Sequence record: PP359570
Reading direction: 5' to 3' (one strand)
Source of the DNA: Escherichia phage ALITA
Length of the DNA stretch: 64,000 nucleotides
Positions 28,600-62,273 of this stretch are shown piece after piece (position 1 is the first letter of the stretch; each line of letters opens with the position of its first letter). Made by a program: the position numbers and the translations under genes. Under the pieces are notes generated by a model, which had not been told where the DNA came from, ran no database searches, and saw nothing but the letters and a program-made list of their open reading frames with translations.

Positions 28600-29412
28600 T
28601 TACTTAGTCAAATGATCTTCTATCATTTTTATGAAAGCAGGATTGCTAAAAGCCTCTGCTGCCTTTTCTCTATAAACAAAGACTCCTCTATCTTCGTAAA
28701 GAAGAGTTTCTTCGTAATTAATTCCTGGGTTAACAACAATCATTTTTGTACCCATATTAAGTGCAGGGAATAATTCCCAATTAAAATTGATAACTTGGTT
28801 TGAACATCCTACTACAACAACCAAATCTTGCATGGTCAAAGTATCAAACAAGTGAGCCATATCTGCATACAAAGGTGCAGCCTCACCAAAAAATACAACA
28901 TTAGGCTTCACCCAGTTATAATCATCTATGTTTATACTATTGTAACCAATGTCTACCAGTGTTTTGTAATCTCCAGGATGCATACGGTAAACTACTTCAG
29001 GAAGATACCCGTGCACGTGAATAACAGAATCCCTGTCCACACCTGCTCGCTCTAATAGATCATCAACGTTTGTTGTCAAGTTTACTACTTGGTTAGGATA
29101 TTCCTTAAACCACTTTGCTATTTGAATATGTGCAGCATTAGGTTGTACATCTTTAAGCTCAACACGTCTTTTGTTATAAAATTCGTGTGTTTTGGCATAC
29201 AAATCCATACCGTTCTCGTCTACACCACCGACCACTGGAAGATCTGGAGATGTTCTCACACGATAACCTGCTTGGAAAGCTCCAATATCGCAGACCTCTT
29301 CTAAATCATATTCTTCCCACAAGGCACGACCACTATCTGTGTCTGTTCGGAACGTTCGAATCCCACTGTCTGCACTTAAACCTGCGCCACTAACAAAAAT
29401 TACTCTTCGCAT
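28600..29412 (-). CDS. Sir2-family (sirtuin-like) NAD-binding protein
   Basis: N-terminal FVSGAGLSADSGIRTFR matches GAG(I/L)S...GI..FR; IHVHG catalytic-His context; no obvious CxxC...CxxC Zn module. Confidence 0.65.
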   Translation of the reverse strand: MRRVIFVSGAGLSADSGIRTFRTDTDSGRALWEEYDLEEVCDIGAFQAGYRVRTSPDLPVVGGVDENGMDLYAKTHEFYNKRRVELKDVQPNAAHIQIAKWFKEYPNQVVNLTTNVDDLLERAGVDRDSVIHVHGYLPEVVYRMHPGDYKTLVDIGYNSINIDDYNWVKPNVVFFGEAAPLYADMAHLFDTLTMQDLVVVVGCSNQVINFNWELFPALNMGTKMIVVNPGINYEETLLYEDRGVFVYREKAAEAFSNPAFIKMIEDHLTK

Positions 29413-30740: not shown

Positions 30741-31730
30741 CTATTCCTCCATACATTTAAGAATATGTGCAATGACAGGTATAGTCCAACCGTTACCTAA
30801 CATCTTATATGCTTGTGTGTTACTACTCACTTTAAAGTAGTCATCTGGCACACCTTGCAAACGGCAACACTCTTTAACGGTTAACTTTCTATAATGTACG
30901 CCTTCACTCAATTTTTCAAAAGCATCTAAATATCTTCCAGGTGGAATGTAAGCTAATAGTACGTCTTTCGGCACAGTCGTGAGGCAACGAGTTTTTTCAC
31001 TGTCCTGAACTTCCAAACAATGTACCAAACGATCAGTTTTAGATGTACTACGTTTGCCATTTTCATTAATTCTACGCCCATATATTGCTGCTGGATAAAA
31101 AACCAGTTGTCTGCGACTCTTTTCAAAATACTGTTCTATATTACCACCTTTGGCATAATTTGCATCTATGCAATAAGCCTTATCTCTGTCTACAATACTA
31201 TCATCTTCAATGATATCTTGCAACACTTCATTGGTAATATCCCAGGGTTTTATTTCCCAGTTGCACCAGTATAAACGTTGTCTATTCTGTGCCGTGAAAT
31301 CTGCGGAGTTAATGAATACGGGATCAACACCTAAGTAACTTGTGATCACGTTTTCCCACTCCACTTTCATCTTAACGTTTTCAAGCATGAACTTAACATT
31401 AGGGTTAAACTTTTTAATATGTTCAAGAATCTCAACATATTCGAAGAATAGCTTAGATCGCGGATCTTGAAAGTTCAAACCCTTACCAGAAGAAGAGAAG
31501 CCTTGACACGGACTACCACCTAACAAAAGATCAATTTCTCCCCACGGGATATCCCATTCTCTCCATTTTGTAACATCACCTAACTGAATAATATCTGGAA
31601 AATTTGCTTGGCTTTCAGCTATGGCGAATTTGTCTAATTCTGAAGCATAATATGTATCTACGTCAATACCTGCACTTTTTAGCGCAAGCATTCCTCCTGA
31701 CATGCCATCAAAAAGACTTAAAACTTTCAT
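30741..31730 (-). CDS. DNA (cytosine-5)-methyltransferase
   Basis: Motif I LSLFDGMSGG, motif IV GGSPCQGFS (PCQ), motif VI MLENV. Confidence 0.85.
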   Translation of the reverse strand: MKVLSLFDGMSGGMLALKSAGIDVDTYYASELDKFAIAESQANFPDIIQLGDVTKWREWDIPWGEIDLLLGGSPCQGFSSSGKGLNFQDPRSKLFFEYVEILEHIKKFNPNVKFMLENVKMKVEWENVITSYLGVDPVFINSADFTAQNRQRLYWCNWEIKPWDITNEVLQDIIEDDSIVDRDKAYCIDANYAKGGNIEQYFEKSRRQLVFYPAAIYGRRINENGKRSTSKTDRLVHCLEVQDSEKTRCLTTVPKDVLLAYIPPGRYLDAFEKLSEGVHYRKLTVKECCRLQGVPDDYFKVSSNTQAYKMLGNGWTIPVIAHILKCMEE

Positions 31731-33573: not shown

Positions 33574-33894
33574 TTAACAAGTAATATTGGGAGTAACAAT
33601 TGGATTAACAATTGGAGTGATAGGGTACGTAAACCAAGGGCTTCCAATTTCCCAAGGATTATAAGGTCTACGAGGATCAAATGGAGGAGTTACTTCAGGC
33701 TTTTTCCAAATCTCCGCTAGTTGTTTCTTCCATTTATCCCTTGCTGTCTCATTATCTTCATCCAACTGTTCATCATTATCTTTTATTTCTGGTTTTGGAA
33801 ATAAAAGCTCTTTGACTAACTCAACATCTTCCGTCTCAATAGTAGTTTCTTTCGTAAGTTCTCCTACTGTTTCTTTAATTGTGATTTTATACAT
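33574..33894 (-). CDS. hypothetical protein (106 aa)
   Basis: ORF-track ORF; Pro/Trp-rich C-terminal half. Confidence 0.45.
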   Translation of the reverse strand: MYKITIKETVGELTKETTIETEDVELVKELLFPKPEIKDNDEQLDEDNETARDKWKKQLAEIWKKPEVTPPFDPRRPYNPWEIGSPWFTYPITPIVNPIVTPNITC

Positions 33895-34640
33895 TAGTCC
33901 TCCTCTAAAGTAGAATAAAATTGTAACGTATTTGAATCATCAAAATATGCAAAGGTTAAATTACCATTGAAGCAAGATCCTGTGTCCATATATACCCTAT
34001 TACTGCTAATCATAGGTTTAGGAACATAAGAATGCCCGTGAAATACATAATCTACTCCTGAAACCCTAGGAAGAAGAATCCCTTCAAGTGCGCAATCTAT
34101 CATATCACGATCCCACATTAAAGATTCTGTGAATCGAGAAACTTGCTCTTTATTCATATTCAAACAAAATGGCAAAACTTCTGTCACTGGTAAATGTTCC
34201 AAAACTGAAGGATACCCACCGTGAATAAAGCCTAGTTTCATATTACGATAATTGACAACAAGTACAACAGGTAAATCTTCTAGCATCAAAGCAAGAGCAG
34301 TTGCACCCTCTTCTCCACACTCGTCTAGAACTGTATGGCCTCCGTTCTGAAACCAACATTCGTAATATCGTCTATCACCTTCTAGCAACCCTTTAATCAT
34401 CATATCTTCATGGTTCCCACGAATACCATAACGATTTAGCTTTCTGGTGAATTCAACAACACAACGAAAATTCTGCTTGCCGCGATCTGTAAGATCTCCT
34501 AAAGATACAACAACATCTTGATCTCGGATACCTAAAGTATTAACACCTTTCTGGTACAAATCAAAGCAACCATGTAAATCACCAATAATAAACAGGTCTT
34601 GATCATCTTTTACACTAATTTCTTGATATACTAGCATCAA
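33894..34640 (-). CDS. PPP-family Ser/Thr protein phosphatase (lambda-phosphatase-like)
   Basis: GDLHG, GDLTDRG and GNHE signature motifs in order. Confidence 0.8.
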   Translation of the reverse strand: MMLVYQEISVKDDQDLFIIGDLHGCFDLYQKGVNTLGIRDQDVVVSLGDLTDRGKQNFRCVVEFTRKLNRYGIRGNHEDMMIKGLLEGDRRYYECWFQNGGHTVLDECGEEGATALALMLEDLPVVLVVNYRNMKLGFIHGGYPSVLEHLPVTEVLPFCLNMNKEQVSRFTESLMWDRDMIDCALEGILLPRVSGVDYVFHGHSYVPKPMISSNRVYMDTGSCFNGNLTFAYFDDSNTLQFYSTLEED

Positions 34641-55341: not shown

Positions 55342-56226
55342 TTATTTTTGAATAGTTGACTTAATAAGGTCTTGCATAATACCACGGATTTCATTAAAGC
55401 ACAGAAGGACAGATGCTTCAAAAGATCCTTCTTCATCGTTAAAGTATTTAGGGAATTTAATACCACTCAACTTAAATTCTTTATCAACAATAAAGTTAAC
55501 GAAACCGTCATATTCCAGGCCAATAGCAACAACGTGCTTACCATCTTCCATAAGTTCTACTGCACGAGATTCGTAAAGGGATTCTTTACTCCATACAACC
55601 ACACCTTCAGAATCTTCAAGTTTAATATAATTACCAAGGGTCAGTCGTTCAGCCTCATGTTCTTCTAAGATGGTATCAAAACCTTTAATAATGGCTTCTT
55701 CGTGTACACTAAACGGCAGAACTGGGAAAGTACCCAACACCTCACGAAGAAATACAGCAATATCTTCACTAATTTTCTTAGTACCATTAAGAACGTAGGT
55801 AATACTGTTTTCAGTGTCTACAACAACATAGTTATAGAAATCATCTGCCTCTGTTTCTGGGAGCAGAGAAAACACAATATCAGCCTCAATTGCTTTTTTA
55901 CTTTCTTTGTCCAAGAAGAATTCTTTAGTAGGATTTGCAGCAATAAACTCTTGTTCCATCTCTTGGAGTTTTTCATTAAGAATGCGTTTAACTTTTTTCT
56001 TGTTAACTTTCTTAACAGATTGCCCTACTTTAATAACCTCTAAACCAGAGAACACTTTTACATAGGAACCATCATCTTCAAAACGAACAAGACCAATGGT
56101 ATGTGCTTGTTGACCCTGTGCCACAACAAAATCCAGCGGTTTGTCTGTTACTGTGTTCAGTGCGGAAATAGACAGACCATCACCAGAAATCAGGGTTACG
56201 CAAGATTTGAAATTTTTAGCAAACAT
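55342..56226 (-). CDS. hypothetical protein (294 aa)
   Basis: ORF-track ORF; no motif recognised. Confidence 0.5.
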   Translation of the reverse strand: MFAKNFKSCVTLISGDGLSISALNTVTDKPLDFVVAQGQQAHTIGLVRFEDDGSYVKVFSGLEVIKVGQSVKKVNKKKVKRILNEKLQEMEQEFIAANPTKEFFLDKESKKAIEADIVFSLLPETEADDFYNYVVVDTENSITYVLNGTKKISEDIAVFLREVLGTFPVLPFSVHEEAIIKGFDTILEEHEAERLTLGNYIKLEDSEGVVVWSKESLYESRAVELMEDGKHVVAIGLEYDGFVNFIVDKEFKLSGIKFPKYFNDEEGSFEASVLLCFNEIRGIMQDLIKSTIQK

Positions 56227-56515: not shown

Positions 56516-56524
56516 AATACCTCC

Positions 56525-56550
56525 AATAAGCCCCCGAAGGGGCTTTATTT
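56525..56550. terminator. GC hairpin (terminator-like)
   Basis: aagcccccgaaggggcttt + T-rich; approx. Confidence 0.4.
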
Positions 56551-56551
56551 C

Positions 56552-57274
56552 TTAAGCAATGATTGCTGCGATATTAGGTTTAACAAAGGTAGATGGTTTC
56601 ATAATTTTACCTTTGTCATCAAAGAATACGTACACCTTTTGAACTTCGTTATATACAGCATGTACCCCAGTATAAGAACCTTCTGCACGATCTTTGCTTC
56701 GCATCTCGATAGCATCGCACTCTTTTTCAAGAGCTTCAATAATATCTTTAGTTTCCCAAATAGCCAGGAGTTGCTTCTTGGTAGGATACTTGGACTCATT
56801 GCTATTCAACACTTCACGCATAACCTTCTTCTCGTTATAAACAGAACGCACCAAAGTATCTCGTGCCATACGTGTAAGTGTAAGAGACATTAAGGCAAAT
56901 TGCAAGTCATTTTCTACCATTTTATCAAATTCAATGATAACATCGTAAATGTTTTCTGCCAGAACATCGCCTGTCGGCATTTCCAGAGCTTTATCAACAC
57001 CTTCTTTACCAAAGAACATAAATGCCAGATAGGATGCTACCACAAAAATATCTGCTGCTGCATCAAGTAATTCAACGTGATCATTTTCCTGTGCTGCTGC
57101 TTGAAACTCTTTAAGTTCTTCTCGTACAAAAGAAAGTTGAGCTTCAAACATCTCTTGAGTAAATTCTGGAGTTACTCCACCGCGTGCCTTAGCATTCCAA
57201 GCAACAATTTGATCGGCAGCTTTGATAAAGAAGCTATTGTCCACTTTTACTTGTTTGAAAAAATTCTCGATCAT
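56552..57274 (-). CDS. hypothetical protein, possibly MazG-like all-alpha NTP pyrophosphohydrolase (240 aa)
   Basis: REELKEFQAA...ELLDAAADIFVV loosely resembles MazG E..E / D motifs; weak. Confidence 0.3.
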   Translation of the reverse strand: MIENFFKQVKVDNSFFIKAADQIVAWNAKARGGVTPEFTQEMFEAQLSFVREELKEFQAAAQENDHVELLDAAADIFVVASYLAFMFFGKEGVDKALEMPTGDVLAENIYDVIIEFDKMVENDLQFALMSLTLTRMARDTLVRSVYNEKKVMREVLNSNESKYPTKKQLLAIWETKDIIEALEKECDAIEMRSKDRAEGSYTGVHAVYNEVQKVYVFFDDKGKIMKPSTFVKPNIAAIIA

Positions 57275-57283
57275 TGTTTCTCC

Positions 57284-57463
57284 TTATTTAAAATATTGTT
57301 CTAACAAAACACTAATGCGAACTACCGATTCGCCCATATACGCCCCAGCACAGAGGAAAACAACAAATCTACAAAAATTGCAGTACCATTTGTCCACTGG
57401 AAACGAGGCTAACATTATAATTGCAATAGCAATTAACATCATAAGAACTGTTACTAATACCAT
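57284..57463 (-). CDS. small membrane protein (59 aa)
   Basis: Track ORF 57284..57490 trimmed to MVLVTVLMMLIAIAIIMLASF after aagagg SD. Confidence 0.35.
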   Translation of the reverse strand: MVLVTVLMMLIAIAIIMLASFPVDKWYCNFCRFVVFLCAGAYMGESVVRISVLLEQYFK

Positions 57464-57471
57464 ATTACCTC

Positions 57472-58587
57472 TTACTCTGCTGGTTCCCAAGTACCTGGAA
57501 TCATCTTACGTACACGTACCCCAACAGGCTTGGTAGGAATACCTTCGTCTGAAAATTCTTCGTACTCTATTTCAACAAATTGACCAATAAGTGTCAAAGC
57601 ATTTTCTTCTTTACGATAGTTAATGGTTTCATCTGAATCCTTACGCATCAGGAATTCGACTACTTTACCATTTTCCATCTCGCCTGTCAATACCCCGTCA
57701 CCATTTTTATCACGTTTTGCACTTACCACTTTAACTTCAAGCGTCTGACGTGGTTTACGTTTAATAACATCATAAGAACGTTTATCAAACTCGTAAACAC
57801 CTTGTGCGTTACGATACACCACACCTTCCGCTTTCTCACGCAGAGCTTTTGCATAGAATTCATCAAACTGCTCTTGGTTTTCAATGTACTCTGTATGTAC
57901 TACACAAATAAGTTCATCTAAACCTTTATCTTCAACAACGTCTTTTAGAGCAGCCAAAACTTCAACCCTCTTCTCAAATGGTACAGATGGCACAGGAACA
58001 TCATATACATAGTATTTAAGAAGCGGAGTGTTAGCATTATGCTTTTTCCACGCACTATTAATTTGTTGAAGGCTAAGGACACCCAAACCAGCAAAAACTT
58101 CACCGTCAAGAGGATGACCAACTACTTCTTTAATGAAGGTTGGAATTTCTTTCCAGTGAGGTGGAAGTTTATATACTTCCCCAGCTTTAGATAAACATTC
58201 ACCTTGCATGTTAATCATTGAACGTAGACCATTCAATTTATATTGTGCATAACCTGGGAACAAAACACGATCAGCATAATCTTTATAATCCTGACATTTC
58301 ATGGGTGTAGAAGGAACATGGTTTTCAGCTTCCTCTTTTGTTTTATAATACCCATTCTTAAGTTGCTTTGTCCATTTGGCAAGAGCTTCTATTTCAGCTT
58401 GTTCTTCTGCTGTTGTTTCATTTGAGCGACCAATATTTTTAGGTTCTGCCGTATAAGATTTGCTAGTGATCTTTCCACCTAATTGACCATGAGCAACAGT
58501 TACAACACTACCTTCGGTATAGACTGACCACTGTCTAATTTTACCTGTAGAAGTTTTACCATATAATGTAGGATTAGTTTGTTTCAT
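57472..58587 (-). CDS. ATP-dependent DNA ligase (small, T7-size)
   Basis: Track ORF 57472..58635 trimmed to MKQTNPTLYG after GGAGG; motif I YKLNGLR, III LDGEVF, IV EGVVYR, V VIKRK. Confidence 0.8.
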   Translation of the reverse strand: MKQTNPTLYGKTSTGKIRQWSVYTEGSVVTVAHGQLGGKITSKSYTAEPKNIGRSNETTAEEQAEIEALAKWTKQLKNGYYKTKEEAENHVPSTPMKCQDYKDYADRVLFPGYAQYKLNGLRSMINMQGECLSKAGEVYKLPPHWKEIPTFIKEVVGHPLDGEVFAGLGVLSLQQINSAWKKHNANTPLLKYYVYDVPVPSVPFEKRVEVLAALKDVVEDKGLDELICVVHTEYIENQEQFDEFYAKALREKAEGVVYRNAQGVYEFDKRSYDVIKRKPRQTLEVKVVSAKRDKNGDGVLTGEMENGKVVEFLMRKDSDETINYRKEENALTLIGQFVEIEYEEFSDEGIPTKPVGVRVRKMIPGTWEPAE

Positions 58588-58777
58588 CTTTAACCTCCAG
58601 TTGCGAAAGAACCCATTTAGCCATTTCAATTTCACCGTGTAGTCTGCCTAGTTCATAGGCATCATCAATATTACCACCAGTGTAATCATCCACCATAAAG
58701 TAAGGATCTTCACTACTGTTAGGCGCGTTTGCAATTCTCGTTAGTTCTTCAATAAATGTCATAGTTAACCTTACCAA
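58574..58777 (-). CDS. hypothetical acidic protein (start uncertain)
   Basis: ORF-track ORF; alternative ATG at 58762. Confidence 0.35.
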   Translation of the reverse strand: MVRLTMTFIEELTRIANAPNSSEDPYFMVDDYTGGNIDDAYELGRLHGEIEMAKWVLSQLEVKDETN

Positions 58778-58995
58778 TTATACACAAGAGTTTGAATTTC
58801 TTCCATCAAATCTTCAAGATCTGTATCAACATATTCAGAAGATGTTGCCATAAAGTATGTAATCATTGTGAACCCTTCCGAAGAAAGGGCATCAAGGATA
58901 TCATTAAACATATCTTCCATTTCAGTATTCTCACCAAATGAAAATAACATTTGTTGATCTTCGCTTACACCTTTAACATAGATAGCTGTGCTCAT
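58771..58995 (-). CDS. hypothetical acidic protein (74 aa)
   Basis: ORF-track ORF. Confidence 0.4.
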   Translation of the reverse strand: MSTAIYVKGVSEDQQMLFSFGENTEMEDMFNDILDALSSEGFTMITYFMATSSEYVDTDLEDLMEEIQTLVYNW

Positions 58996-58998
58996 ATA

Positions 58999-59319
58999 TT
59001 AATCCTTAAGACGTTCATTTAAATCTGCAATAACATCATTTAAATCTTCACATTCCAGTGTTAACTCTGAAACTTGTTCATTCAAACAAGAAACTTCTTC
59101 ATTTAGATCTGAAATAATGTTTTCTAATGAATCTACTTGATCATCATATGAACGTTTTGTTTCTTCAAGGTCTTCCATAAGACTATCAATCAAATGTAGC
59201 AAAGATAAGATATAGCCGTCTCCTGTTGCGTTCCTCCACTCACTTCCGTAGCGATAAATAATAATTTCACCATCATCGACTACTGTAAAATACTTACCTT
59301 TACCAGAATAAATTTCCAT
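58999..59319 (-). CDS. hypothetical protein with coiled-coil-like C-terminus (106 aa)
   Basis: Heptad-like LEETKRSYDDQVDSLENIISDLNEEVSCLNEQVSELT. Confidence 0.45.
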   Translation of the reverse strand: MEIYSGKGKYFTVVDDGEIIIYRYGSEWRNATGDGYILSLLHLIDSLMEDLEETKRSYDDQVDSLENIISDLNEEVSCLNEQVSELTLECEDLNDVIADLNERLKD

Positions 59320-59328
59320 AAACTCTCC

Positions 59329-59733
59329 TTATTGTAGCTTAAGTGAACTGCGAAGACGTTCCTCTTGCTGATCACGAATATGTTGTGGAACCTCATGAAT
59401 TGAATCGTTACCGTGCCTATTCTCCACAACTAAAGAAATAACTTGATAACCAAACTCTTCAGCAAGAGTTAAATAAGGTTTAAGTTCTTTTTCTGTAGTA
59501 GAGGTATTAGAAACAATAATCTTTTCAACACCATACTGCATATATTTTTGTACTTTGACACGACACCATTGGTGTGCTTTATGGATATTCTCTTGTTTCC
59601 ACTCATACACACCATCTTCAGTGTAGTGGTATTGATCTGCCTCACAAATAGGCCAATGATTTTCAGAGATAATTTCTGCTACTGTAGATTTACCTGCACC
59701 TGAAACACCACGTAAAATGATAAGTTGTTTCAT
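59329..59733 (-). CDS. P-loop polynucleotide-kinase-like protein
   Basis: MKQLIILRGVSGAGKSTVAE Walker A at N-terminus as in T4 Pnk kinase domain; no phosphatase domain attached. Confidence 0.5.
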   Translation of the reverse strand: MKQLIILRGVSGAGKSTVAEIISENHWPICEADQYHYTEDGVYEWKQENIHKAHQWCRVKVQKYMQYGVEKIIVSNTSTTEKELKPYLTLAEEFGYQVISLVVENRHGNDSIHEVPQHIRDQQEERLRSSLKLQ

Positions 59734-60666
59734 TTAGCCTCCAAAGAAGTTTTCTATTTCTTTACGTCGCTCTTGTGGATCGAGAGCAGCCCATTGAGCC
59801 TTCGTAAATTTATTTCGAAGCCATTCTAGCAAAGTATAATATTCTTCGTCAACAATTTGTTTAGCATTGTTTGGGTTGTCCCAAATCATATCCCACTTCT
59901 TATTGCCACCACGCATAAGGAATTTCTTAGCAAGATAGTATGGTGACTTAATCTTTAAGAGTAAGTTAAACGGATAGTTTGTTTCACGAACAACAAAGCC
60001 TTCGTGTCTACAATGTTTAGACATTTCAACAACATCTGAAAATTTAATCATTGGATAAACTTCAGGACGTTTAAATTTTGTAATAGATGCAATCCCATCA
60101 AGAACACCTTCAGGTAACATGAAACTTGTCCCATCAAGATTTTGAATTCTTGCTCCAATTAAGTATGCGCCTGGTTCTTCTTCGACAATATGTGGATCAG
60201 AAGGATCACAGATTTCAAAAAGGAAAGTTGCTTTTGCACTTTCTGTCCACTTAATGAAATACTCTATGTCATCACACTCGGAAACAATACGGTTCTTGGC
60301 AATAGTTGCAAAGTCTGATTCTAGGCTTCCTGTTGTTGATACAACAAGTTTCCCTTTGTACACACCTACAGATGCCATAAAACCGTTTACTTTACGGACA
60401 GCATCTACAAATTCATCTCTTGGAAGATCTGTACCATTCTCAAAACGATTAAAGATTTTAGTAAAAGGCCAAATAACAATATTATCTTCTGAGTCAACAA
60501 CCAACCCACGACAATCTAAAAGTCGTTTGTCAACGTTCCACAAGTTATCCCAGAATACATTGTTTTTGTATTTAAGTACAGCAAGACCAGCATACTCTCC
60601 AGATTTAACTTCTTTTTTATGCACTAAACCTTTTGCAATCAGGTCATCACAATTGAACTTAGCCAC
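59734..60666 (-). CDS. RNA ligase, T4 Rnl1-like
   Basis: LLDCRGLVVD...PFTKIFNRFENG, candidate motif I VRKVNGFM, later LKIKSPYY parallel T4 Rnl1 LECRGIMFE...PMEKFFNLNEN, KEDG, FKIKSDWY (from memory). Confidence 0.55.
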   Translation of the reverse strand: MAKFNCDDLIAKGLVHKKEVKSGEYAGLAVLKYKNNVFWDNLWNVDKRLLDCRGLVVDSEDNIVIWPFTKIFNRFENGTDLPRDEFVDAVRKVNGFMASVGVYKGKLVVSTTGSLESDFATIAKNRIVSECDDIEYFIKWTESAKATFLFEICDPSDPHIVEEEPGAYLIGARIQNLDGTSFMLPEGVLDGIASITKFKRPEVYPMIKFSDVVEMSKHCRHEGFVVRETNYPFNLLLKIKSPYYLAKKFLMRGGNKKWDMIWDNPNNAKQIVDEEYYTLLEWLRNKFTKAQWAALDPQERRKEIENFFGG

Positions 60667-60667
60667 C

Positions 60668-61219
60668 TTAATCTCCTTTGATTATCTTATGATGATCTAC
60701 AACAATAATATCACGCTTATCCATAATAGAGATGATTTCGTCAAAATGCAAGATTTTCCCGTGTGCATCCCAACCAACATCCAACATTTTCCCATACAAA
60801 TGATCAGGGAATGATCCGTGAGAGTGTCCGTGTAGCATGATTGATCCATGCCCTTGTTTATTCCAGGCAGCCATAGGGTAATGACTTAAGACGAAGAACA
60901 GCTTCTGATATTTCACTTCGTCATAATACACAACTTCTCCATACTCTGCAAGCACTTTTCTGTGTTTACTGTAATCATGGTTCCCAACACAGTAAGTAAT
61001 ATCCCCTTGGAGACGGGAAGCAATCTTACGGGTATCTTCTTCAGTCCCGAAACAGAAGTCCCCAAGATGGTACATCTTTACTCCTGGTGTTGTGGCACAT
61101 TTATTCCATGCTTCGATCAGTGCTTCTGTCATATGCTCCATATCTTCCCACGGGCGATATTCAGGAGCAAACTCTCGGATACGTTTGTGCATAAAATGCA
61201 AATCACTTGTAATAAACAT
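60668..61219 (-). CDS. calcineurin-like metallophosphoesterase
   Basis: SDLHFMH (D.H), HLGDF (GD), VGNHDY (GNHD), LHGHSHG. Confidence 0.75.
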   Translation of the reverse strand: MFITSDLHFMHKRIREFAPEYRPWEDMEHMTEALIEAWNKCATTPGVKMYHLGDFCFGTEEDTRKIASRLQGDITYCVGNHDYSKHRKVLAEYGEVVYYDEVKYQKLFFVLSHYPMAAWNKQGHGSIMLHGHSHGSFPDHLYGKMLDVGWDAHGKILHFDEIISIMDKRDIIVVDHHKIIKGD

Positions 61220-61581
61220 TAGTATAATCCCTCGCTGAATAGTTCACTGTTGTGACCATTTCTTTCGTAGTTAATTTGTTTGGCGTTATCTGCAATGACA
61301 TAAGCATCTTTGCGACTCCACCAGTTATAATACTGATCAATAAACCCTTGATTATCAGGTAAGCAAAACAGTTTATCGATCAATCCTGCATCTTTTAAAA
61401 CATTAAGTTGTGCAGATAGTACAGGATTTGCATGCCTAACACAAGGAATAATTAACTCTTCACCATTGTTAAGAATATACTTGTTCGCAGCGCAGACTAT
61501 AACACGTTGAGCATAGTGATCCTCACCAATCCAAGTAAGAGGTTGGTAACAAATATCATGTTGATTAGTAGCGCACATCAA
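61219..61581 (-). CDS. hypothetical protein (120 aa)
   Basis: ORF-track ORF; stop overlaps phosphoesterase start. Confidence 0.5.
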   Translation of the reverse strand: MMCATNQHDICYQPLTWIGEDHYAQRVIVCAANKYILNNGEELIIPCVRHANPVLSAQLNVLKDAGLIDKLFCLPDNQGFIDQYYNWWSRKDAYVIADNAKQINYERNGHNSELFSEGLY

Positions 61582-61736
61582 TTTTCTCCATACTCTTTTA
61601 GTCTATCAGCGAAAAAACTGTAATCAGGAAGTAAAAGATCATTACTCGTATCGCTCCAATTTTCTTCCTCTCTATAGATAAAATGCCCTTCATCCTCTTC
61701 TTGCTCTGACCAGACTGAGTAATGCATAATACCTAC

Positions 61737-62273
61737 TTAATAGTTAACACGTTTAATTTCAACACCATAGGATGCAATAAAATTTTCCTTAGCTAACATA
61801 TATTTACCAGCAGCAGAAGGATTTGATGTATGAACATAGATAGTTTTAAGAGCATCCCATTCACCAGCGTACAACATACATTCTACATCTAAGAACGCAT
61901 GATAGCCTTCTTGATCTTCCCCAAGATCATTATCGAAGTGTATTTCTGAGATATTATTGAAATTATCTTCATCTGAAACAAAAGATGACCAATCCCCAAA
62001 AGATTTTAACCAAATGGCATCCTCATAACCATAATCTTTAGGATCTCTTAAATCGTCTAACCAAAGAATTTTAGCCACTATCAACCCCCCTTCCTGTTTC
62101 TCTTCTTTCCAAGTTTTACCTTTATCTACCAATTGCTTAGAAACAGCAAATCTTTCTCCATTGACATAAAACAGATAAAGAATAAAGGATTTTCCTATAG
62201 TTACAGTATCTACTACTTCTACACGCTTTACACCTTGCATGTATTTGGCTTTACCTGAATAAATAAGGAACAT
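61737..62273 (-). CDS. hypothetical protein (178 aa)
   Basis: ORF-track ORF; conserved-looking ILWLDDLRDP, HFDNDLG, VHTSNP blocks of unknown family. Confidence 0.5.
   Translation of the reverse strand: MFLIYSGKAKYMQGVKRVEVVDTVTIGKSFILYLFYVNGERFAVSKQLVDKGKTWKEEKQEGGLIVAKILWLDDLRDPKDYGYEDAIWLKSFGDWSSFVSDEDNFNNISEIHFDNDLGEDQEGYHAFLDVECMLYAGEWDALKTIYVHTSNPSAAGKYMLAKENFIASYGVEIKRVNY

Follow-up and report, generated by a model that had tools for sequence, protein, structure and literature searches.

What is the role of a phosphoesterase, an RNA ligase and a kinase that are encoded side by side in the genome of a coliphage? In Escherichia phage ALITA (sequence record PP359570; the whole stretch of 64,000 nucleotides analysed here is referred to as the window), three abutting minus-strand genes at 59329-61219 encode a metallophosphoesterase (MPE), an Rnl1-type ligase and a small kinase. 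An initial annotation took these genes for an independently assembled counter-defence module that supplies the same end-healing and end-sealing activities as the Pnk and Rnl1 proteins of phage T4. Homology, conservation of catalytic residues, clustering of the genes in nine phage lineages, the distributions of the ligase and kinase, and fusions between their relatives make it probable that the three genes constitute a split RNA end-healing and end-sealing pathway, which would most likely act on tRNAs cut by host defence nucleases. The cassette is not a new system, however; it is an instance, with its sirtuin gene unlinked, of a known, predicted phage RNA-repair system that is widespread, already annotated and published as a prediction.

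The coordinates and lengths of the three minus-strand open reading frames (ORFs) given in the initial annotation are confirmed, but the span that it assigned to them, 59329-61581, contains four genes packed on this strand according to the ORF listing: the trio accounts for 59329-61219, and the remainder, 61219-61581, is an Arn.3-like gene that had gone unmentioned. The TAA stop of the MPE gene is separated by one base (G) from the GTG start of the ligase gene, and the TAA stop of the ligase gene directly abuts the ATG of the kinase gene; the Shine-Dalgarno sequences for both the ligase and the kinase starts sit within the preceding gene. Upstream, the Arn.3-like and MPE genes overlap by one base (TAATG), and an ORF of 49 amino acids (aa) shares a stop/start overlap (TGATG) with the Arn.3-like gene. 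All four genes lie within a single-direction block that extends from about 28.6 kilobases (kb) to 63.7 kb. In a consensus scan for promoters and terminators, promoter-like sites were no commoner than in shuffled sequence, and the sole convincing hairpin, which is terminator-like and readable on both strands, lies downstream of the cassette at 56520-56545. It is plausible, as predicted from the gene packing, that the three genes form one operon. They are genuine genes rather than chance ORFs, since many phage genera have homologues (28-49% identity) in which the catalytic residues are conserved. The region shares 99.6% identity with that of Escherichia phage EmilieFrey (locus tags bas61) and 97-99% with those of phi92, Paula, Eryne and other Justusliebigvirus phages; the source phage is a phi92-like coliphage.

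The 310-aa product of the middle gene is, as initially annotated and on the evidence of profile matches, a member of the T4 Rnl1 family of ATP-dependent RNA ligases. It matches PF09511 (RNA_lig_T4_1) with E=1.7e-14 and 54.7 bits, above the gathering cut-off of 28.3, and phrog_562, the PHROG that contains T4 gp63, at 9.5e-67. A single-sequence PDB search with the ligase gave no relevant match, and that with the kinase matched T4 Pnk marginally; because such searches were weak or empty, family profiles were needed for both proteins. The ligase profile, which was built from nine sequences that also form the basis of the invariance counts, matches T4 Rnl1 (2c5u) at 1.8e-23 and the ligase domain of fungal Trl1 (6n0v) at 2e-4, and hhalign places residues 46-246 on residues 47-248 of T4 Rnl1 with a probability of 98.9%. 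The motif residues K92 and G95 (motif I, KxxG), E151 (motif III), E222 and G223 (motif IV), and K238 and K240 (motif V) are invariant and correspond to T4 K99, G102, E159, E227, G228, K240 and K242, respectively. R53, K70 and F72 are invariant as well and align with T4 R54, K75 and F77, which are essential according to published mutagenesis. Indeed, all essential residues of T4 Rnl1 except K119 are invariant in the ligase family.

The description of the last gene product as a 134-aa stand-alone P-loop kinase also holds. The protein matches PF13671 (AAA_33) at E=1.8e-10 and phrog_505 ('polynucleotide kinase') at 1.3e-9, and the best PDB match of its family profile is T4 Pnk (7e-7, full length). 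Capnocytophaga Pnkp1 (4xrp; 1.5e-6, residues 4-106), the kinase domain of Clostridium thermocellum Pnkp (CthPnkp; 3.6e-5, essentially full length) and, among the best solved relatives, a Rhizopus kinase are matched too, whereas gluconate, adenylate and nicotinamide-riboside kinases match at the P-loop region only (E>=9e-4). With hhalign, residues 1-133 are placed on residues 1-149 of T4 Pnk, i.e., on the whole kinase domain (probability 97.3%, E=2.4e-11). All 120 homologues listed, of 285, are stand-alone proteins of approx. 134 aa. In an alignment of 121 sequences, which underlies all conservation counts for the kinase, the P-loop G9-V-S-G-A-G-K-S-T17 (GxxGxGK[ST]) has G12, G14, K15 and T17 invariant, and D33, which is equivalent to T4 D35, the general base activating the 5'-OH, is invariant throughout. 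The lid residue R122 of T4 Pnk corresponds to R106 (117 of the 121 sequences), and H107 and H113, near the lid position, are invariant.

The third enzyme was proposed to be a calcineurin-type phosphatase as in bacterial Pnkp, and here the superfamily assignment stands, whereas the subfamily does not. Although the match to Pfam Metallophos_2 (E=4.8e-4) is under the gathering score, the protein matches phrog_547 ('phosphoesterase') at 8.5e-55 and contains the complete motif set of the calcineurin-like superfamily (DxH, GD, GNH[DE], H, GH and GHxH). The binuclear-metal motifs D6/H8, G53-D54, G79-N80-H81, H113, G131-H132 and H134 are invariant among the eight phage homologues used for the family profile and conservation. 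The closest solved relative in profile searches is Aquifex aeolicus aq_1665 (1xm7; 3.5e-18); neither 4j6o (the phosphatase of CthPnkp) nor 1g5b (lambda phosphatase) is matched at E<=1. Because the profile misses 4j6o and 1g5b, the likeness to Pnkp exists only at the superfamily level; judged by sequence, the MPE belongs to the aq_1665 subfamily and not to the Pnkp/lambda subfamily. The aq_1665 subfamily has been credited with 2',3'-cyclic phosphodiesterase activity in the literature, which is a matter of background and not a result of this analysis. At E<=1e-3, the MPE family comprises 11,297 representatives, which makes it very large. Elsewhere in the window there is a second metallophosphoesterase (33894-34640), which is of the lambda phosphatase/NinI type (1g5b, E=1.5e-29) and weakly matches 4j6o; it represents the Pnkp-like phosphatase type in the window, unlike the MPE, and shares 28% identity with the NinI-like gene that immediately precedes the RNA ligase gene in Vibrio phage JSF10.

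The suggestion that the module was independently assembled does not survive comparison with other genomes, as the trio is conserved in hundreds of phages. Homologous trios, located within a few kilobases and sharing 28-49% identity, occur in eight other lineages (nine with the window), namely, rV5-like DrSchubert, Aeromonas phage 2L372X, Pseudomonas phages phiPsa374 and PaoP5, Vibrio phages JSF10 and Chazly21, Acinetobacter phage P1 and a metagenomic contig; the Pseudomonas and Vibrio phages each represent two genera. In most of these loci, the kinase gene comes directly after the ligase gene. Streptomyces phage BRock was also considered as a carrier of the trio but was rejected, as the genes flanking its ligase gene are not homologous to the kinase or MPE genes. 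Among 50,697 phage records surveyed, 661 contain ligase homologues and 624 contain kinase homologues, with closely similar counts per genus (ligase/kinase: Escherichia 198/197, Pseudomonas 175/173, Klebsiella 36/36, Acinetobacter 24/24 and Aeromonas 13/13), and a single PHROG profile, phrog_8238, matches both proteins.

Gene fusions point in the same direction. A protein of 524 aa (P0158; L013:5001-6575) from a 58-kb contig of JGI metagenome 3300004634 is a fusion of an MPE relative (55% identity) with an RNA ligase domain (PF09414; ligase motif KIHGTN). The order of genes on this contig, L013, is cREC, an unknown gene, the fusion, a small ORF, an Rnl1-like ligase and an AAA_33 kinase, with a DNA ligase and RdgC further on, and it mirrors that of the window. 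Since the PF09414 fusion is accompanied by a separate Rnl1-like ligase, the L013 phage has two different RNA ligases in one cassette. Two other MPE relatives, P0186 and P0191, are fused to HAD_SAK_2, the 'Swiss-army-knife' RNA-repair HAD domain. Because the trios cluster, the ligase and kinase distributions match and MPE relatives are fused to RNA-repair domains, RNA end healing and sealing is, as an inference, well supported; the individual reactions of the enzymes, RNA (tRNA) as the substrate and a part in counter-defence are likewise predictions. In comparative-genomic studies, this role has also been predicted for the rV5-type neighbourhood, which is homologous (PMC9503650; PMC7824862).

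In the course of the survey, ligase and kinase genes were also found in four records labelled 'Campylobacter phage' with C. jejuni as the host (MG065650, MG065652, MG065674 and MG065690). Their ligase is about 46% identical to that of the window, as in rV5-like phages, and the kinase is 82% identical in B15. Because these levels of identity equal those of rV5-like and phi92-like coliphages, they suggest that the records are mislabelled or contaminating coliphage genomes.

According to the proposed mechanism, the MPE would remove the cyclic or 3'-phosphate from a cut RNA and leave a 3'-OH, possibly after the product of the nearby cREC gene had opened the cyclic-phosphate ring. The 134-aa kinase would phosphorylate the 5'-OH, with D33 acting as the general base. 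The Rnl1-type ligase would then be adenylylated on K92, transfer AMP to the 5'-phosphate and seal the nick. The trio may represent a single conserved unit within a counter-defence region, which would also comprise MazG, the distal sirtuin, and the nicotinamide adenine dinucleotide (NAD)-salvage genes and tRNA cluster located past the end of the window.

Several observations weigh against this interpretation. In the ligase, the position of motif Ia K119 of T4 Rnl1 is taken by T112, which is part of an STTGS stretch with invariant flanking T111 and G113. Residues 247-310 (64 aa) of the ligase do not align to the C-terminal domain of T4 Rnl1 (126 residues, about 255-374), and alignment, which in hhalign ends at 246/248, detected no similarity to this helical domain, which is thought to confer tRNA specificity. 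In the kinase, T4 R38, which contacts the substrate phosphate, is represented by H36 (His in 110 of the 121 sequences), T4 D85 by the invariant N76 and T4 lid residue R126 by a variable position; because the equivalents of these three residues are missing, specificity for polynucleotides is likely but not assured. The aq_1665 subfamily is uncharacterised, and no substrate has been assigned to aq_1665 itself. Genes for a DNA ligase and for nucleotide metabolism lie close by and permit other readings, and no experiments on the cassette were found in the literature, including the phi92, rV5 and BASEL papers. Moreover, Iyer et al. refer to the kinase only as a 'nucleotide kinase' (PMC9503650). T4-like healing and sealing, as initially proposed, is made likely by homology, catalytic residues, clustering, distribution and fusions, whereas the MPE type, K119 together with the C-terminal domain of the ligase, and three kinase residues differ from T4.

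Repair might be performed by the ligase and kinase only, while the MPE does another job, acting, e.g., on nucleotide second messengers, ADP-ribose derivatives or small phosphoesters. MPE homologues are present in 1,323 phage records, i.e., about twice as many as for the ligase and the kinase, which is a further point against the trio as a functional unit, as is the Staphylococcus Kayvirus MPE locus, where no ligase is annotated within 4 kb and because of which the MPE family appears to be broader than RNA repair. In addition, other genes separate the MPE gene from the ligase gene in several phages, NAD-salvage genes are located near the cassette, and the closest solved relative lacks a known function. 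Nonetheless, MPE relatives are directly fused to both an RNA ligase domain and HAD_SAK_2, the MPE gene is located within a few kilobases of the ligase gene in nine of the nine trio lineages examined, and in the window it abuts the ligase gene with a one-base gap, so that a separate job for the MPE is considered rather unlikely, although it deserves some weight. It is less probable that the kinase and MPE heal DNA ends (5'-OH and 3'-phosphate) for the nearby DNA ligase and serve DNA repair or replication. T4 Pnk acts on DNA too, an ATP-dependent DNA ligase is encoded 0.7 kb downstream of the cassette, and a DNA ligase gene is found a few kilobases from the RNA ligase gene in the rV5-like, Aeromonas, phiPsa374, PaoP5 and L013 loci. 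However, the gene that sits between those of the kinase and MPE encodes an RNA ligase of the Rnl1 family whose active site is intact, the kinase follows the RNA ligase in distribution and adjoins it, and the associations with cREC and HAD_SAK indicate RNA cyclic-phosphate chemistry.

If RNA is accepted as the substrate, the cassette might still process the RNAs of the phage itself (tRNA maturation or repair, or the joining of fragments) as part of routine metabolism that is independent of host defence. Large tRNA clusters are indeed present near the cassette in phi92-like and related phages, ALITA has no identified target among host nucleases, and the cassette is kept in phages isolated on laboratory strains of K-12. 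To our knowledge, however, countering the PrrC anticodon nuclease is the only experimentally established role of a phage kinase/phosphatase and Rnl1 set, reportedly described by Amitsur et al. in 1987. The surrounding NAD-salvage, sirtuin and cREC genes are also tied to conflict systems (PMC9503650), and a purely domestic function appears improbable. Finally, PHROG and GenBank label the ligase 'RNA ligase and tail fiber protein attachment catalyst', which raises the question of whether it acts mainly in tail-fibre attachment, like T4 gp63. This label is inherited from T4 gp63, though, and the nucleotidyltransferase residues are invariant, the gene is paired with the kinase gene in a set of early genes for nucleic-acid metabolism, and the protein lacks the C-terminal region of T4; such a role is therefore very hard to credit. 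A split pathway for the healing and sealing of RNA ends remains the reading that we prefer.

How does such a pathway relate to those already known? In comparison with T4 Pnk (PseT) and Rnl1, which act against PrrC, the predicted activities are alike (a 3'-end phosphatase, a 5'-OH kinase and an Rnl1-family ligase), and the ligase and kinase are detectable homologues that have kept the catalytic Lys, Glu and Asp. However, the phosphatase of the cassette is a separate binuclear metallophosphoesterase, whereas in T4 the kinase is fused to a HAD phosphatase domain; the cassette kinase is minimal (134 aa) and has no equivalents of R38, D85 and R126; and the ligase is 64 aa shorter than T4 Rnl1, without most of the C-terminal domain. 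Moreover, pseT and rnlA are 1.4 kb apart in T4, with genes between them, whereas the cassette genes are contiguous. Like bacterial Pnkp (C. thermocellum Pnkp/Hen1 and Capnocytophaga Pnkp1-Rnl-Hen1), the cassette unites a P-loop kinase and an ATP-dependent RNA ligase with a phosphoesterase of the calcineurin superfamily. In Pnkp, however, these form one polypeptide rather than three proteins, the MPE of the cassette is of the aq_1665 type and its ligase of the Rnl1 type rather than the Pnkp ligase type, and no Hen1 methyltransferase is seen in the cassette. As for aq_1665 (1xm7), metal-binding motifs are common to both proteins, but the phage MPE family is tied to RNA ligases by neighbourhood and fusion.

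A close counterpart was described by Iyer, Burroughs, Anantharaman and Aravind in 2022 as a type 2 sirtuin-centred RNA-repair neighbourhood in rV5 and Proteus phage Mydo, the components of which are a T4-like ligase, cREC, a nucleotide kinase, MazG, a calcineurin-like phosphoesterase and a sirtuin (PMC9503650). Every listed component has a homologue in the window, and the identities to rV5-like DrSchubert are 46% (ligase), 43% (kinase), 36% (MPE), 47% (cREC), 30% (MazG) and 48% (sirtuin). Nonetheless, the sirtuin gene, which is adjacent in rV5/Mydo, is unlinked in the window and located 30 kb from the ligase gene, the MPE, ligase and kinase genes of the window are co-directional and abutting, and an Arn.3-like gene and the 49-aa ORF are inserted between cREC and MPE. 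The novelty implied by the initial annotation must also be withdrawn in view of existing annotations in EmilieFrey and the phi92 lineage: in GenBank, the trio of EmilieFrey (bas61_0242-0244) is labelled 'putative phosphoesterase', 'RNA ligase' and 'polynucleotide kinase', and a note on the Paula ligase, derived from phi92 gp096, reads 'putative RNA ligase / RNA repair'.

The module is also larger than the three genes initially recognized, as cREC upstream, a MazG-like gene downstream and the sirtuin gene 30 kb away belong to it as well (Table 1). Five components of the rV5/Mydo type (ligase, cREC, kinase, MazG and MPE) are located within 56552-62273 and are homologous to DrSchubert genes.

Table 1. 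Genes of the proposed RNA-repair cassette of phage ALITA and other features of the window (aa, amino acids)
Feature	Position	Strand	Length	Remarks
P-loop kinase	59329..59733	-	134 aa	predicted RNA 5'-OH kinase, stand-alone, polynucleotide-kinase clade
ATP-dependent RNA ligase, T4 Rnl1 family	59734..60666	-	310 aa	GTG start; short C-terminal region
Binuclear metallophosphoesterase, aq_1665 subfamily	60668..61219	-	183 aa	predicted remover of RNA 2',3'-cyclic or 3'-phosphate
Arn.3-like protein	61219..61581	-	120 aa from TTG, 119 aa from ATG at 61578	phrog_839; precomputed PF26092
49-aa ORF	61578..61727	-	49 aa	hypothetical protein in EmilieFrey and Paula annotation
cREC gene	61737..62273	-		PF20274 cREC_REC; in frame with upstream 63-aa ORF
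MazG-like nucleotide pyrophosphohydrolase	56552..57274	-	240 aa	PRA-PH, phrog_671
Sirtuin (SIR2)	28600..29412	-	270 aa	PF02146; 30 kb away from cassette
ATP-dependent DNA ligase	57472-58635	-		0.7 kb downstream of cassette
RdgC-like protein	55342-56226	-		downstream of cassette
C-5 cytosine DNA methyltransferase	30741-31730	-	329 aa	PF00145, E=1.5e-43; near sirtuin
Second metallophosphoesterase	33894-34640	-	248 aa	lambda phosphatase/NinI type

The cREC (cyclic-phosphate-processing receiver-like) gene matches PF20274 at E=8.6e-13, above the gathering score, and its product is 47% identical to the ligase-adjacent cREC of DrSchubert. The protein is a probable accessory cyclic phosphodiesterase, a role predicted in PMC7824862, where the same group named cREC, and in PMC9503650. 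The canonical product has 113 aa and starts at the GTG at 62078, whereas the ORF in the window encodes 178 aa through fusion to the 63-aa ORF (phrog_15376). The fusion is caused by a minus-strand G6 run at 62085-62090, which doubles as the Shine-Dalgarno sequence for the cREC GTG. Because EmilieFrey, Paula and Eryne have one base fewer at this run (GGGGG or GGGTG), they contain two separate coding sequences, and the start of cREC in them is the GTG that corresponds to 62078. The fusion in the window is either a genuine variant or an error made in sequencing the homopolymer.

The MazG-like protein (PRA-PH, E=3.2e-7; phrog_671, 5.9e-28) is 30% identical to the product of the gene after the sirtuin gene in DrSchubert; as a recurrent neighbour in the module, it is possibly accessory to repair. 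A sirtuin gene beside the cassette was found neither by Pfam searches of the small neighbouring ORFs nor in the nearby annotation of relatives. It was located 30 kb off by tblastn with the DrSchubert sirtuin (48% identity, E=2.7e-83), near the far end of the minus-strand block, and matches SIR2 at E=1.3e-22. It belongs to the clade of sirtuins that in rV5-like phages adjoin the ligase and cREC genes, and a 2'-phosphotransferase-like role has been proposed (PMC9503650).

Other genes in the surroundings of the cassette recur elsewhere. The order of the DNA ligase gene, a MazG-sized gene and RdgC is repeated on contig L013, and a DNA methyltransferase gene is found near the sirtuin gene. No tRNA genes were found in the 64-kb window. 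Directly past its end, the closest relatives (EmilieFrey L001:11127-15221, equivalent to about 64126 onward) encode PRPP-synthetase-like and nicotinamide phosphoribosyltransferase-like (NAD salvage) proteins, followed by a tRNA cluster. The NAD-salvage pair is also present beside the ligase and kinase genes in phiPsa374, PaoP5, JSF10 and Chazly21.

What remains is the Arn.3-like gene, which, together with the 49-aa ORF (no Pfam match), separates cREC from MPE. It is assigned by phrog_839 and a precomputed PF26092 match, and homologous ORFs, which some records label Arn.3 and others 'anti-restriction nuclease', occur in 1,541 phage records, many of them of T4-like phages. R26, R49-H50, QGF78-80, Q83, R90, Q102, RNG107-109 and a C-terminal SEGLY are invariant. 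The AlphaFold model is confident (predicted local distance difference test score, pLDDT, of 92) but has no match among solved structures, and in BFVD it matches uncharacterised phage proteins only, including polyvalent-protein domains. Because the gene was not found beside the ligase gene in the other lineages examined, its membership in the repair pathway is unsupported. The confident fold without a solved relative, the invariant residues and the SEGLY motif nonetheless allow one to speculate that the protein might be a new-fold RNA-end or nucleotide enzyme that works with the cassette in phi92-like phages, e.g., as a replacement for the adjacent sirtuin of rV5-like phages. Although the odds are clearly against this idea, it would, if true, give a function to a family that about 1,500 sequenced phages, T4-like phages among them, possess.

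The RNA-repair hypothesis is already present in the literature and in GenBank annotation, and experiment is the missing part. Within this context, the cassette supplies three small, separable enzymes for biochemistry, and their characterization could, if the predictions are true, provide the large and uncharacterised aq_1665 subfamily of metallophosphoesterases with a substrate. The cassette is carried by more than 600 sequenced phages of Escherichia, Klebsiella, Pseudomonas, Vibrio, Acinetobacter and Aeromonas, among which are therapy-relevant Pakpunavirus and phi92/rV5-like phages. If true, the proposed role would bear on the success of these phages against PrrC/RloC-type, HEPN and other nucleases that leave cyclic phosphates. 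Should the predicted activities be real, the cassette would represent a second widespread answer of phages to tRNA- and RNA-cleaving defences, besides T4 Pnk and Rnl1.

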